Assembly (NCBI GenBank): GCA_963815195.1
Contig: CAWFGE010000020.1
Coordinates: forward strand, 320,001 to 384,000
DNA: 64,000 nucleotides
Reading direction: 5' to 3'
Source: an uncultured Planctomycetaceae bacterium
GTDB lineage: Bacteria; Planctomycetota; Planctomycetia; Planctomycetales; Planctomycetaceae
The first letter of the stretch is position 1. The number at the start of each line of letters is the position of its first letter. The position numbers and the translations under genes are program-made. Below are positions 7,790-14,473 of the stretch, in pieces. The notes under the pieces were generated by a model. That model searched no databases. It saw nothing but the letters and a program-made list of their open reading frames with translations, and had not been told where the DNA came from.

Positions 7790-8688
7790 CTATTCGATGA
7801 TTTTGTTGATCGAGTATTCCACGATGCCCCGCGCGCCCGCGGCTTTGAGTTTGGGGATAATCGTGCGGACGAAGGACTCCGCCACGATCGCCGTGACATC
7901 CACCCAATCCGGATCGGACAGCGACGACACCGTAGGCGATTGAAGCGCGGGCAGTTGACCCAAAACTTCCTGCAGATTGTCCCGGCGGACGTTCATCATC
8001 AGCCCGACTTTGCCCTCCGCGGCGAGGCAGGATTCCAGCATGAGCGCGATGTTGTCCAGCTTTTCGCGAATCCAGGGGTCTTCGTAGGATTTTCTGTTGG
8101 CGATGAAGCGGGTCGTGCTTTGGATGACCTCGGCCACGATCCGCAGGTTGTTCGCCCGCAGCGAATTTCCGGTCTCGGTGACTTCCACGATCGCATCGGC
8201 CAATCGCGGCGGCTTGACTTCGGTCGCGCCCAGGAAAACTCCACCTTCGCGGTGACGCCGTGCTTTTCGAGGAAGCGCTTCGTAAGGCCCACGGCTTCCG
8301 TGGCGATCCGTTTTCCTTCCAGATCCTTCACGGTCTTCACTGGGGAATCTTCCGGCACGCAGAGCACCCACCGCACCGGGCGGCGGCTGACTTTCGAGAA
8401 CACCAGCTCGCAAATCTCATAAACGTCGGCTTCGGTTTCCAAGACCCAATCGTGCCCCGTGATCCCGGCATCCAAAATGCCTTCCTCGACGTACCGGGCC
8501 ATCTCCTGGGCGCGGATCAACAGGCATTCGATGTCCTCATCGTCGATGTCGGGATAATACGAGCGCGAGGAGAATTTGATCTTGTAACCCGCCCGGCGAA
8601 AAAGCTCCGCGGTCGCGTCCTGCAAGCTTCCCGCAGGAATCCCGAGCTTCAGCCGACGCTTAGTTTCTGTGGTTTCGGTGTCCGACAT
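7790..8688 (-). CDS. hisG: ATP phosphoribosyltransferase (long form); one frameshift at ~8230
   Basis: [10 protein letters not shown]...[10 protein letters not shown]...DAGITG then [29 protein letters not shown] and the C-terminal regulatory domain; adding one G to TGGG restores SWGATEVKP. Confidence 0.92.
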
Positions 8689-8703
8689 TGTGCTTTCTTA
8701 ACC

Positions 8704-8770
8704 AGTAGGGTGGGCACCGCCCACCAATGCAAAGCCAATTTGAAATCTGGTGGGCGGTGCCCACCCTACT
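8704..8770. repeat. REP doublet (REPIN-like), GTAG-type palindromes
   Basis: Perfect 23-bp inverted repeat AGTAGGGTGGGCACCGCCCACCA (8704-8726) / TGGTGGGCGGTGCCCACCCTACT (8748-8770); each arm is internally palindromic and starts with GTAG. Confidence 0.8.
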
Positions 8771-8843
8771 TTTACTTCGTTTCTGTGGTTTCGGTGTCCG
8801 ACATGGTTTCTCTTAGAAATTGCAGGTCCCAGATTCTTCGTTA

Positions 8844-9164
8844 TTAATCTTCGTCGGTATAGGAACCTTCGATGGAGTGCTTCTCGTCCGCGAGATTTTC
8901 AAGAAACTCCTGTCGGATCCTGGCGATAATCCAGCGCTCCGACCAATCATGGCTCTGATGTAAACCGTTGGCGACGTGACGAGCCAAATCAGCGAGCAGA
9001 TGCCCCCAGACCTCGGGTTCCTTTCTTCCATCGTCTTCCGAATCTTGCCGCAGGCCGCCCAACAATATTGAGACATGGAGTTCCCCATGGGCGAGCCAAA
9101 CGCGGATCATCTCCGTGGCATCGTCATCTCCCGCAATCTCCGGTGGCTTATCGAGTTCGTGCAT
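8844..9164 (-). CDS. DUF5076-like protein
   Basis: ATEMIRVWLAHGELHVSI...EPEVWGHLLADLARHVANGL pattern. Confidence 0.7.
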   Translation of the reverse strand: MHELDKPPEIAGDDDATEMIRVWLAHGELHVSILLGGLRQDSEDDGRKEPEVWGHLLADLARHVANGLHQSHDWSERWIIARIRQEFLENLADEKHSIEGSYTDED

Positions 9165-9172
9165 GCTGATCG

Positions 9173-9568
9173 TTACTTCTTGTTATAAACCGCCTTGGGA
9201 TCGAACACGCGTTCGCCGATGACGCTGATTTCCTTCGTCGCGGGGTCGATCTGGCGGAAGAAGCAGCTTTTGTAGCCTTCGTGGCAGGCGGCACCGCCGA
9301 CTTGCTCGACTTGGATCAACACCGTATCGCGGTCGCAGTCGAAATAAATGGCTTTGACGTTTTGGACGTTGCCGCTCTCTTCGCCTTTCCGCCAGAGCTT
9401 GTTTCGGCTGCGGCTATAGTAGCAGACTCTGCCCGTCTTGAGCGTTTCGTTCCAGGCTTCGCGGTTCATATACGCCAGCATCAATACGTCCCCGTTGCCG
9501 GCATCCTGGGCGATCACGGGAATCAGCGGCGACTTCTCAAAATCCGGCTCGTTTGCTTGCTCAGTCAC
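9173..9568 (-). CDS. hisI: Phosphoribosyl-AMP cyclohydrolase
   Basis: LIPVIAQD...LMLAYMN...[18 protein letters not shown]...DCDRD...[10 protein letters not shown]. Confidence 0.95.
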
Positions 9569-9809
9569 AATCAAAATCCTCGGTTGTTTTATCGCTGTTT
9601 CAATGCAATTCTTCGCGTCTTGGTGGTAAAGACGTTTTCGGGCATTCTCACTTCCCCCATTCGGCCCGTTCGCCTAGTATCTGCGCTATTGACGGAACTT
9701 GCAAGCACCCCTCGCCGGGGCTTTTTCCTGTTTTTTGAGATGCAGCCCGGCGAGCGCGGCGAATTTCAATCGAAAACTGAGAACCCGAACCGAAAGGAGT
9801 TTTTCTTCG

Positions 9810-10421
9810 ATGGCCGAACAAAAAGCAACCAACGTCACCTGGCACGAGCACCATGTTTCCAAGGCGGAACGTGAAAAACTCAACGGGCACCCGGGCAGCG
9901 TGCTGTGGTTCACGGGGTTGTCCGGCTGCGGCAAAAGCACCGTCGCCAACACCGTCGACCACATTTTGTACTCCCAAGGCAAACGCAGCTTCGTCCTCGA
10001 CGGCGACAATGTCCGCATGGGCCTGAACAAAAATCTGGGCTTCTCGCCGGAAGACCGGACCGAAAATATCCGCCGCATCGGCGAAGTCGCCAAGCTGTTC
10101 GCGAGTGCGGGGATCATCACGAGCACGGCGTTCATTTCCCCCTACAAAGCCGACCGCGACCTGGTCCGCGAACTTCTTCAGCCGGGCGAGTTCATTGAAA
10201 TCTACGTGAAGGCGTCGCTGGAAACCTGCGAAGCCCGCGATCCCAAGGGCCTTTATAAAAAAGCCCGCGCCGGGGAAATCAAAGGTTTTACGGGCATCGA
10301 CGCCCCCTACGAAGCCCCCGAAAGCCCGGAATTGGTCCTGGACTCCGACAGCAAAGGCATCGACGAACTGGCCCAGGAAGTCGTGGCGTACCTGGAAAGC
10401 CACAAACGGCTTTCGCTGTGA
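9810..10421 (+). CDS. cysC: Adenylyl-sulfate kinase
   Basis: [54 protein letters not shown]. Confidence 0.97.
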
Positions 10422-10436
10422 GTCGTTTCGGCCAAC

Positions 10437-11783
10437 TCACCATTCGATCCGCTCGAACAATCGCATCAACTTGGCTCCGCGACTGGGGTTGATCGCGGCT
10501 TGATAGGCGATCAATCCTTGCAAATGGGCTTGAAAGTGCGCGCGGCCGGAGCGGTTTTGTCTCTTGGGGCCGTGCCGAATGCAGTTGAACAGAATCGCCC
10601 GCAGGCGGTCGTAATCATCCCGGCGGAGGTTGGGCCGCTGATTGAGCACGAGGCCACAGGCTTCCTGCCGAGCGGCTTGGCTCATCACGCGGGTCTTTCG
10701 GTGGCGGATTTCAAACCCTTCATTGAGCACGATGGCGCAAACCGAAATGCGAAAGCGTCCCAGGCTCCGCCGAAAATCGCGGCCGCCGGAAAACACCAGA
10801 TCGTCGGCATATCGCGTGTAGTTCGCGCCGGCTTTGCGGGCCAATCCGCTGAGCCGGCAGTCCAAACGGTAAGCCGCGAGGTTGGCGAGCGTGGGCGAGG
10901 TCGGTGCTCCCTGAGGCAAGTGTGGATTGCCGTATTGTTCCGCCAACCGGCGGTACGGATCGAGATCCAGTGAGTCGTTCAGTTCCTCAACGATTTCGGA
11001 AGGGACCGAGTTCGTGCAAAGTCCGGTCAACAACTCGGCGACCGCTTCGGGATAACCGGTCCAGCGAAACAGCGAGCGAACGCGGGCCCTGTGAATCGAA
11101 GGAAAGAAATGCCGCAGGTCCAAATGCAGCACAACCTGCTGCCCGGCGTGCGGCTCGACATAAGTCAAAACCGAACGGCCGCTGCGAAACGCGTGCGCTG
11201 CTTCGTGGGCGGGGATGCGGCCGACGATTTCTTTGAGGATGCGGCGCTGGATGTTTTTTAAGAGCGGCTTGGGTTCTTCGATCAAGCGGTATCCGGGGCC
11301 GCGTTTGGGCAGCCAGCGGTAACGGTAATGCCTGAGTTTTTCATTTGGCCGAAAGCGCTCGCGCCCGAAGCAATCCGCCAGCCAATCCAGGCGGGAAGGA
11401 CTGACCGACAACCAATCCGCCAAATCGCCGGGCGTGACCAACTCCGGCAGGTTCCAACCGGCGGGAAGACCTCGGCCGGGAATCATCTGCGGCCGAGGAA
11501 CGGCCAAGGTATCGATTTCGAGCCCATCGTTGAGTTCGAGTTCGCAAATTTTCTCCCACAAGATTGGATCGTGATTCAGGAAATCCACAAGCAGTCGCTG
11601 GGGGGGCGGCAAGGCATTGGCATCAAAGCGAGCCAGGATTCTTCGCGCGAAGGGTGCGATCCACCGGGCCCTGGGATCGGGCTGCAATGCTTTCTTGAGC
11701 CGATCGATCAACGCGTCGATCGTCCACGGACCGGACAAAATCACGATTGCCAGCCGGCGACTGAAAACCTTGCGATGCGTCAT
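10437..11783 (-). CDS. Retron-type RNA-directed DNA polymerase (448 aa) with ~110-aa N-terminal extension
   Basis: RT motifs RLIEEPKPLLKNIQRRIL, AHAF, LDLRHFFPSI, LPQGAPTSPTLAN, YTRYADDLVFS, KTRVM...QEACGLVLN; no maturase/endonuclease domain. Confidence 0.92.
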   Translation of the reverse strand: MTHRKVFSRRLAIVILSGPWTIDALIDRLKKALQPDPRARWIAPFARRILARFDANALPPPQRLLVDFLNHDPILWEKICELELNDGLEIDTLAVPRPQMIPGRGLPAGWNLPELVTPGDLADWLSVSPSRLDWLADCFGRERFRPNEKLRHYRYRWLPKRGPGYRLIEEPKPLLKNIQRRILKEIVGRIPAHEAAHAFRSGRSVLTYVEPHAGQQVVLHLDLRHFFPSIHRARVRSLFRWTGYPEAVAELLTGLCTNSVPSEIVEELNDSLDLDPYRRLAEQYGNPHLPQGAPTSPTLANLAAYRLDCRLSGLARKAGANYTRYADDLVFSGGRDFRRSLGRFRISVCAIVLNEGFEIRHRKTRVMSQAARQEACGLVLNQRPNLRRDDYDRLRAILFNCIRHGPKRQNRSGRAHFQAHLQGLIAYQAAINPSRGAKLMRLFERIEW

Positions 11784-11804
11784 TGGGGAATTGGCGAAAA
11801 AAAA

Positions 11805-11969
11805 CGGGCGGCACGTCCCACCTGGTCTGGTCACGCGTGAATTATGCTCCACAACGTGGAGGGGCATTCACGCCACGGAACGGTTCGGTTGGAAACAATC
11901 CCCGGGGTTGCCCCGGAGAGGAAAACTTCACCCGCAGGCAAAATCTTCCCACTTGAGACGTGCCGCCCG
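11805..11969 (-). ncRNA. Predicted retron msr-msd non-coding RNA
   Basis: Terminal inverted repeat 11805-11817 / 11957-11969 (13 bp perfect, 16 bp with G-U), unpaired AG after the 5' arm (G at 11952), stem-loops 11920-11949 and 11900-11918, long hairpin 11835-11873; lies directly 5' of the RT on the same strand. Confidence 0.8.
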
Positions 11970-11975
11970 GTTTTG

Positions 11976-12004
11976 AATCTACGTCCACGATCGCAGCTTG
12001 TCAA
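11976..12004 (-). promoter_or_regulatory. Sigma70-type promoter for the retron ncRNA/RT
   Basis: Minus strand TTGACA (12004-11999), 17-nt spacer, TAGATT (11981-11976); predicted start ~11970 coincides with the 5' arm of the ncRNA. Confidence 0.75.
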
Positions 12005-12286
12005 TTTGCGCGATCGAAAGGTCGATTTGAGTCCTCACGGCCGGCGGGCACGCAAAAAGGCTGACTCTGTGGATTGTGCCACCAAGAAGGATTCTTTGGG
12101 CCAAAGGCCAAATCGCTTTCAGAAAACTCCGCCCCGGCCATGATGGACGCCGAGAATAAGTTATCGTACATTCCATTGCGGGTGAATCGGCGCTCGGCAT
12201 CCGTCCGAAAAGAAAGAAGAGCGGACCGCCGCCGGGCGATTTCCACCCCTCGAAGTCAAACGACACAACTCCCTGAACAGGCCAAT

Positions 12287-14473
12287 ATGCCTCCGGTTCA
12301 TCTTGCGATACTTTGGCATCAGCATCAGCCCTATTATCCCGACGATGTGAGCGGGGAAACCTTGATGCCCTGGGTTCGCCTGCACGGGACCAAAGACTAC
12401 TTCGGCATGGCCCGGCACCTTTTGGAAGTCCCGGAGTTCCGCTGCACGATCAACCTCGTGCCCAGCCTGCTCGTGCAGATTTTGAGATACACCGAACAGG
12501 GCGGCAGCGATCGGCATTTGGATTTGTCCCGCTTGCCCGCCGACAGCTTCACCGCTTCCGACCGGCGGGAACTGTTGTCGGCCGGTTTTATGGCCAACCC
12601 GGAAAGCATGATCCGACCGTATCCGCGGTATCAGGAACTTCTGCTCAAGCGCGGCGTCGATCCCGTGGAAAAAGCCGCCGCCCGCTTTTCCGAAGCGGAC
12701 CTCCGCGATCTTCAGTGCTGGAGCAATCTCACCTGGATTCATGAACTCGCTTTTGAAGACGATCCCGAACTCCGCGAGTTCCGCAAGAAAGGCAAAGGCT
12801 ACAGCGAAAGCGAAAAAGCCTGGCTTCTCGATCGGCAGATGGCGATTCTCCGGCAGGTGATTCCGCTCCACAAGAAGCTCGCGGAATCGGGGCAGGTGGA
12901 ACTCACGACCACGCCGTTTTATCATCCTATCCTGCCGCTCTTGTGGGACAAGACCTCGGCCCGGCAGGCCATGCCCGATTGCCCGCTGCCCCGGTACGTG
13001 GACCGCTACCCGGAAGATGCCCGCCGGCATCTGGGGCGGGGCGCGGCGTTTCACGAAAAGATTTTTGGGAAGCCGCCGCGGGGCCTGTGGCCTTCGGAAG
13101 GTTCAGTCTCACAGGACATCTTGGAGGCCATCACCGAAGTCGGCATCGAATGGATCGCCACCGATGAGGAAATCCTCGCCCACTCCACGGGCGGCCGGGT
13201 CGCGCGGGACGGGCAAGGCCACGCAACGCATCCCGAACTCTTGTATCGGCCCTGGAATGTCGAAGCCGGCACGAAGCCGTTGCAGATCGTGTTTCGCGAT
13301 CACGGTCTGAGCGATTTGATCGGCTTTCATTACCAGCGGAGCGAACCCCATCATGCGGTGCAGGACCTCATCGGCCGCGTGCTCGCCATCGGGCGGGCGG
13401 TCAGCGCCGAAGGCAGCCACCGGCCCGCCTTGGTGCCGATCATTCTGGACGGCGAGAACTGCTGGGAATACTACCCGGACGGCGGCGTGGATTTTCTCCG
13501 TCGGCTTTACCGCGACGCGGTCCGCAACGAACGCCTCCGCCCCGTGACGATCAGCGAGAGCCTCAAGGAGTTTCCCGCGACCGACACGATCGGCCGATTG
13601 TTCGCGGGCAGCTGGATTTCGCACAACTTCGCGATCTGGATCGGCCATCACGAAGACAACACCGCCTGGGATCTCCTGCACATGACCCGCGAGTTTTTGA
13701 AGGAAACCGCCGCCGCGGGCACGGCCGAGCCCGAGGCTTTGGAGAAAGCCCAGAACGAACTCGACATTGCCGAAGGCAGCGATTGGTTCTGGTGGTTCGG
13801 AGACGATCATTCGTCGGCCCAGGATGCGCTGTTCGATGAACTGTTTCGCCGGCATTTGAGCAACGTCTATCGGCTCTTGGGCAGCAATCCGCCCAACGCC
13901 CTTCGCCGGCCGATCACGCGGGCCGATCATCGGTTGCTCCACACGCAGCCAACGGGTTTGTTGCGGGTGAAGGTCACCGGGCGGGCCACGTATTTTGAAT
14001 GGATCAGCGCGGGGAAATACACGAGCGGCAGCGAGCGCGGCACGATGACGCTCGTCACCGAAGGATTGATCAAAGGGCTGCACTTCGGCTTCGACCCGGA
14101 GCGGCTGTTGATCCGGGCCGACACCAACGGCCGCGCGAAAGACGCGTTTCGCTCGGTGGACGAAGTGCGGGTGCGGTTCCAAGAGCCGGCCCAAACGGAG
14201 ATTCGCATCACCGGAGCGAACACCCGCCAGCCGGCCGCCGCACTGTTTCGCCAGCAGAAAGAAGTCAACAAAGCCAAGGTGGAAGCCGCGATCGACACGC
14301 TAGTCGAGATCGGCGTGTCGCGGGCCGATTTGAACGTCGACGTGGGGGACCGGGTTTCGTTCTTCGTGGATTGCCTGAGCAAAAACCGCAGCCTCGACCG
14401 GGCTCCCCAGGAAGGTTTGATCGAACTCACGGTCCCCTCGCCGGATTTTGAGTTGTTCATGTGGCAGGTGTGA
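12287..14473 (+). CDS. Glycoside hydrolase family 57 (amylopullulanase-like)
   Basis: [59 protein letters not shown]. Confidence 0.92.

Follow-up and report, generated by a model that had tools for sequence, protein, structure and literature searches.

The window, by which we mean the whole 64,000-nucleotide stretch of planctomycete DNA under analysis, carries on its minus strand a retron unit of ~1.57 kb that runs from a promoter through an msr-msd non-coding RNA (ncRNA) to a reverse transcriptase (RT) gene. All six elements named in the original prediction (promoter, paired arms, an AG at the branching site, two msr stem-loops, msd hairpin and RT start codon) were found in the proposed minus-strand order, each where it had been placed. 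The RT gene (10437–11783, minus strand) is intact and encodes 448 amino acids, with its ATG at 11783 and its stop at 10437. It is convergent with an adenylyl-sulfate kinase gene (cysC) across a gap of 15 nt and divergent from a GH57 gene; hisI lies nearby, and no effector gene fits inside the unit. The GC content of the unit (0.599) is close to that of the window (0.604). Elsewhere in the window (7790–8688), an ATP phosphoribosyltransferase-like gene, named from its translation and presumably hisG, seems to be split between two minus-strand ORFs (7999–8688 and 7790–8413), which suggests a frameshift or an assembly error.

The ncRNA, also on the minus strand, opens with a 5′ inverted-repeat arm (11954–11969) that pairs with a 3′ arm (11805–11820) to form the closing stem. 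Directly after the 5′ arm come A11953 and G11952, the latter being the predicted branching G whose 2′-OH would serve as the primer. These are followed by msr stem-loop 1 (11920–11949), which varies in length and sequence among relatives, by msr stem-loop 2 (11900–11918; GGGG-3 nt-CCCC), which is the most conserved element, and by an msd hairpin (11835–11873) consisting of a basal stem, an internal loop and an apical stem. A second G, at 11822, opposes the branching G. Most relatives keep the final base pair of the closing stem, where the window has either an A-G mismatch or a bulged A, and a run of eight U (11797–11804) directly follows this stem. The RT start codon lies 21 nt past the 3′ arm, as had been predicted. 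An in-frame ATG further upstream (11867), which would open a 476-aa ORF, was rejected as the RT start, since it falls within the msd hairpin and the start codons of relatives align with 11783. The stretch ahead of the start codon (11784–11804) is without a Shine-Dalgarno-like purine run; in many relatives, the ATG stands within about 5–10 nt of the 3′ arm.

Folding of 11790–11980 with RNAfold reproduced the structure that had been drawn by hand, at −93.4 kcal/mol (z −5.72), and none of 200 shuffled sequences was equally stable. The upstream regions of 24 sequences were then aligned, comprising the window, 22 loci from the host family and L001. Left out of this alignment were L012, which nearly duplicates L009; L008 and L027, in which stem-loop 1 is longer; L013, where no RNA could be recognised; L003–L004, with type XIII-like RTs; and L031–L033 of the sister lineage (see below). 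The boundaries of L015, L021 and L023 were adjusted by eye. The RNAalifold consensus recovered the arms, stem-loop 2 and the msd hairpin; stem-loop 1 forms a hairpin in most single-sequence folds of relatives and is absent from the consensus. Compensatory changes on both sides were seen in 26 of 31 pairs, and 92.4% of the alignment cells are paired. Within the arm helix, 10/10 consensus pairs had changed on both sides. Stem-loop 2 is paired in 100% of its cells with both-side changes in six of its eight pairs, and the msd hairpin is paired in 92.7% and 95% of cells. Not one of 500 shuffles reached any of the five measures used, and slid controls were 37–53% paired.

Because this structure was derived from the same 24 sequences on which it was scored, a model built on them (R1) was applied to independent metagenome loci. 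R1 found the RNA upstream of the RT, on the RT strand, in 69 of 80 loci; of the 11 loci missed, six offer hardly any upstream sequence and five are real misses. The model also matches L008 and L027, which had been left out of the alignment, as well as one locus from Burkholderia and, with a weak score (E 0.0008), the Dietzia locus; a search of the Tsukamurella locus with R1 gave no match. The arms and hairpins drawn for the window are conserved and covary upstream of its RT homologues. Relative to a copy of the unit in a genome of the same genus (G070), the ncRNA is identical at 153 of 169 positions, while 43% of synonymous sites differ. Stem-loop 2 and the base of the msd stem are conserved in sequence beyond pairing, which suggests that they may be recognised by a protein, and stem-loop 2 is likely to be the hairpin that the RT recognises. 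An Rfam scan of the window returned only a tRNA and no match for the ncRNA, and no second copy of the ncRNA was found in the same genome among the 150 of 2910 candidates that were scored.

For the priming site, a further alignment with 34 rows was used (31 of the better-scoring metagenome matches, the window, and the Dietzia and Burkholderia loci). G11952, which had been singled out as the branching G, occupies a near-invariant column (G in 32/34 rows) and faces G11822, whose column holds a G in 33/34 rows. In Ec86, the opposing G is not copied. Taking G11822 to be uncopied as well, msDNA synthesis would start at 11823, and the register of the nearest planctomycete relatives gives 11822. A pair of opposing Gs at the end of the arm duplex has been described for retrons (Mestre et al., 2020; PMC7736814). 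The original prediction of an msDNA of at most about 80 nt starting at ~11821 is best amended in both respects, since this G-G register makes a 5′ end at 11823 or 11822 more likely and the predicted msDNA (11823–11897, plus strand) would be ~75 nt at most, with a 3′ end that is not predictable from sequence. Folded as DNA, this molecule reaches −13.9 kcal/mol. By analogy with known retrons, it is highly probable that the unit is both a retron and a producer of msDNA. In the survey of Khan et al., RT-DNA was obtained from 62 of 98 new retrons, about a third being without detectable RT-DNA in E. coli, and yields were intermediate for clades other than 2, 9, 10, 3 and 4 (PMC10849725).

The promoter consists of a sigma70-type −35 box, TTGACA (11999–12004, minus strand), and a −10 box, TAGATT (11976–11981, minus strand), separated by a 17-nt spacer. 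The proposed TTGACA-N17-TAGATT motif is therefore present, but its consensus score is not above chance; it is the single sigma70-like site in 8000–14000, where 1.7 are expected by chance, so that the motif alone proves nothing. What supports the promoter is its conserved position, as 25 of 90 related loci have a TTGAC 22–46 nt ahead of the 5′ arm, compared with 275 of 18,400 random windows. Given the usual promoter spacing, transcription would start at ~11970–11969, the first base of the 5′ arm. Across 92 loci, the 10 nt that follow the 3′ arm have a mean T fraction of 0.33 against a background of 0.19, with at least five T in only 18 of the 92. The U-run at 11797–11804 is possibly, if speculatively, a pause or attenuation site, and attenuation of read-through could leave the ncRNA in excess of the RT mRNA.

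The only Pfam family found in the RT is RVT_1. PADLOC ranks RT_other (493 bits) and RT_outgroup (467 bits) first, with all other types scoring well below these two, including RT_XIII (317 bits) and RT_Ec107-like (191 bits). NCBIfam retron models score 160–178 bits, under every curated cut-off, and group II intron and DRT models reach 38.5 of 300, 31.3 of 390 and 19.8 of 200 bits (score against cut-off). Whether compared by sequence or by predicted fold, the nearest solved structures belong to retron RTs, with Ec86 first. The catalytic YADD motif (10800–10811, minus strand) is intact and is kept in 97 of 98 aligned homologues. Retron RTs are characterised by region X (NAxxH, with H most conserved) and region Y (VTG, with G most conserved; PMC7736814). 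In the window RT, these read HEAAH (11193–11207, minus strand) and ACG (10653–10661, minus strand), so that the key H and G are kept and the rest deviates. The same 98 rows give a family consensus of HxAAH for region X (HEAAH in 37, HDAAH in 29) and of xAG for region Y (AAG in 55, VAG in 21, VTG in 8), in which G377 is invariant. The ratio dN/dS against the same-genus copy is 0.19 for the whole RT gene and 0.21 for the 90 N-terminal residues, and the RT is under purifying selection.

A tree of 62 RT cores, a quick LG+G4 run in which the chosen outgroup was not monophyletic, groups the RT of the window with RTs from Tsukamurella, Dietzia, Burkholderia and metagenomes in a clade of 38 rows (SH-aLRT 99). 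The sister of this clade is formed by planctomycete RTs whose N-terminus differs, and a second analysis gives the same picture for the planctomycete sequences. Profile, structure and tree all identify the enzyme as a retron RT, as the original prediction had proposed. Two further RTs in the same genome (G000:C13:1180387-1181349, L003/L079; G000:C23:234510-235454, L004/L080) best match RT_XIII, with 509 and 486 bits against 345 and 303, the reverse of the order seen for the window RT, and both fall outside the 38-row clade. The open frame of the C23 copy is only 369 aa long, its N-terminal part seemingly lying in another frame, and a weak SWIM match is found ~10 kb away.

The RT begins with a five-helix domain (residues 1–90; 11514–11783, minus strand) that is predicted with a pLDDT of 88.8; 97 of the 130 loci searched carry this domain at the start of their RT. 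Its 88 aligned sequences share no invariant residue; only A12 and G18 reach 90%, and the conserved positions are mainly hydrophobic and basic. The domain matched no Pfam family at E 10 and nothing in Foldseek at E 0.001, a search of the Atlas gave no usable match, and the best VIA-align hit (Z 4.9, rmsd 3.0, 76 aligned) is within noise for helical bundles. Such absence of a family or fold match shows neither a new fold nor a function. Nineteen short homologues, mostly on small contigs, are probably RT fragments. The Tsukamurella and Dietzia loci were not matched in the N-terminal profile search, from which the domain appears to be divergent or lineage-specific.

The copy in G070 occupies another site, and the match spans exactly promoter to stop (window 10437–12007). 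This copy is 81% identical to that of the window, and the flanking genes are 84–91% identical. The unit was not found in G130, the second of the two other genomes of the genus, which is 90% complete. Recent mobility, considered on account of this exact match in a different neighbourhood, was not shown: synteny breaks every few genes in these genomes, and a changed neighbourhood is therefore no proof of transposition. No gene family recurs as a neighbour in more than three of 33 loci with 1.5-kb flanks. In a larger set of 86 loci, taken with longer flanks and in 41 cases reaching 1.5 kb on each side, no family exceeds five loci, the most frequent neighbours being large common families such as ABC ATPases. 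None of the best 80 matches in viral contigs is full length, with identities of at most 36%, and phage records hold nothing closer than 37%. Another retron of the clade, L243, has the same RNA layout and is located between merA and a transposase on the 47-kb Dietzia plasmid NZ_CP046569.1, so the lineage can ride on mobile DNA.

Within the host family, the window lineage is patchy (31/151 genomes), the sister lineage is present in about 101/151, and 18 genomes hold both, as counted by hand from 150 listed rows, with 11 weaker rows outside and class judged by match start. Members of the sister lineage (L031–L033, L040–L053, L055) possess a related ncRNA, and their RT often opens with a short amphipathic helix, for which the strict pattern is seen in 11 of 18 and a visible one in more. 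The sister gene was not found in the genome of the window (G000), in G070 or in G130. For a retron to come so close to being a core gene is unusual, which makes the sister lineage a better lead than the window lineage. Several loci show apparent decay: L013 (G026) has an intact RT and no ncRNA match, and a single internal TAA interrupts the N-terminal part of the RT in both L015 (G103) and L024 (G039). At L056 (G230:C3:181426-184041), two outgroup-type RTs form a tandem pair.

These features fit a stand-alone clade 11 retron, of subgroup A or B. The label, a probable one, is taken from the name of the PADLOC model, whose ‘outgroup’ we take to be used in the same sense as the clade 11 Outgroup, and from the grouping with two Mycobacteriales RTs (Tsukamurella and Dietzia). 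Clade 11 was described as stand-alone (msr-msd)-RT cassettes, essentially actinobacterial and of undetermined function (Mestre et al., 2020; PMC7736814). In a survey of SPIRE, clade11-A/B are tied to the OutgroupA/B RNA models (Table 1, PMC13712802); clade11-B is enriched in Mycobacteriales, its low-confidence members are 86% Planctomycetota, and clade 11 is given low novelty (PMC13712802). The table of Khan et al. lists 18 clade 11 retrons, 17 from Actinobacteria, one from Myxococcus and 0 from planctomycetes, and nine of the 18 had an RT-DNA test vector (PMC10849725). The family of this retron has thus already been described, and the unit is a new example of a catalogued, effector-less lineage that has been noted in Planctomycetota.

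The anatomy suggests how this chromosomal, two-part retron, probably of clade 11 and with its own promoter, would operate. A single transcript beginning at the 5′ arm would contain the msr-msd RNA followed by the RT message, and pairing of the arms would set G11952 opposite G11822. The RT, bound at stem-loop 2, would prime from the 2′-OH of G11952, copy from ~11823 through the msd hairpin and stop in the single-stranded linker before stem-loop 2. The product would be a 2′-5′ branched RNA-DNA whose DNA part is ~75 nt at most. One speculative possibility is that a protein of the host or of a phage is bound by the base of the msd stem, whose sequence is conserved, together with the lineage-specific helical domain at the RT N-terminus.

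As to its role, we tentatively favour, at somewhat less than an even chance, the speculative reading that the particle of RT, msDNA and RNA acts without a dedicated toxin, as a DNA decoy or sensor by way of such binding. It is hardly credible that the unit makes no msDNA at all, the RT being of another class (group II intron or DRT/UG) or an inactive relic accompanied by chance hairpins: non-canonical regions X and Y, scores below every NCBIfam retron cut-off and the lack of an Rfam match would accord with it, but group II and DRT models reach 20–39 bits against 160–178 for retron models, and a covarying retron-type RNA, the intact YADD and a dN/dS of 0.19 argue against it. Rather unlikely is a tripartite defence retron of which the unit supplies the sensor or antitoxin half, with the effector encoded elsewhere in the genome. 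Mestre et al. leave effectors in trans possible for orphan retrons, yet they also describe most orphan-retron hosts as being without homologues of known effectors (PMC7736814). The patchy presence (31/151) and the decayed copies resemble accessory defence genes, whereas the housekeeping neighbours (cysC, hisI, GH57), cassette neighbourhoods that differ even within the genus and the best 80 viral-contig matches, none a full-length relative, speak against such a role. Two RTs resembling type XIII are indeed encoded at other places in the genome, as are SWIM proteins, but SWIM matches also occur in 11 of 14 control genomes and are uninformative.

Unlikely, too, is a domesticated, non-defence retron with a regulatory or stress role and mainly vertical inheritance; domestication has been suggested by Mestre et al. 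for restricted clades (PMC7736814). The housekeeping context, a GC content (0.599) near that of the window (0.604), the 81% identity to the same-genus copy, near the 84–91% of its flanking genes, and the sister lineage in about 101/151 family genomes are in keeping with domestication, but the window lineage itself is patchy (31/151) and was not found in the 90% complete G130, and no target or partner was identified. A special case of the self-contained particle that we tentatively favour would have the N-terminal helical domain as a built-in effector, making a single-gene defence retron like the RT-Toprim, RT-TIR and RT-protease fusions. Its presence in 97/130 loci, the pLDDT of 88.8, purifying selection and the sister lineage, in which another, amphipathic N-terminus sits on a similar RT core and suggests a swappable module, are all compatible with this. 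We nevertheless consider it very unlikely, since 88 sequences without an invariant residue are unlike an enzyme, hydrophobic and basic conserved positions are as in a nucleic-acid-binding or structural module, and type XIII-like RTs with separate effectors also have N-terminal extensions. A broader joint claim, which we regard as quite doubtful, is that clade 11 and its planctomycete sister are complete single-gene systems whose function would reside in an N-terminal RT module that can be swapped, a five-helix domain here and a membrane-seeking amphipathic helix in the sister. If true, no separate toxin would be needed, the function could possibly lie outside phage defence, and the question of what orphan retrons do would be answered.

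The catalogue value of the unit is small, the lineage having been described and already noted in Planctomycetota. With its own promoter, defined RNA and intact RT, it offers a clean and compact 1.57-kb test case for the role of effector-less retrons, and its GC-rich RT-ncRNA pair is a candidate for producing ssDNA with retrons. Specialists might wish to follow up the conserved N-terminal domain and the widely distributed sister lineage.

Amongst solved structures, the best relative is Retron-Eco1 (Ec86; PDB 7V9U/7V9X), with E 7e-30 by sequence and E 4e-21 by fold, and its RNA has the same layout of arms, G, msr hairpins and msd hairpin. Ec86 is only 26% identical to the window RT, is without the 110-residue N-terminal part and has a linked effector, which is also named in the title of 7V9X. 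The Retron-Eco5 (Ec107) branch of clade 2 is the other described effector-less retron branch (PMC7736814), but its RT is distant from that of the window (RT_Ec107-like 191 against RT_outgroup 467 bits). Type XIII retrons (clade 10: Mx162, Mx65, Sa163, Ne144) share a long RT with an N-terminal extension and supply the next-best PADLOC type. Assignment of the window unit to type XIII was rejected, as RT_XIII gives 317 bits only, no SWIM or HEAT/ARM partner adjoins the RT, and in the tree the RT stands apart from the type XIII-like RTs of its own genome. The closest likeness is to the stand-alone retrons of clade 11. Although the clade of Mestre et al. is essentially actinobacterial and the window retron is planctomycete, both consist of an ncRNA and an RT with no linked effector, the best PADLOC models are RT_other and RT_outgroup, the same RNA architecture is found in the Dietzia locus, and the RT groups with those of Mycobacteriales.
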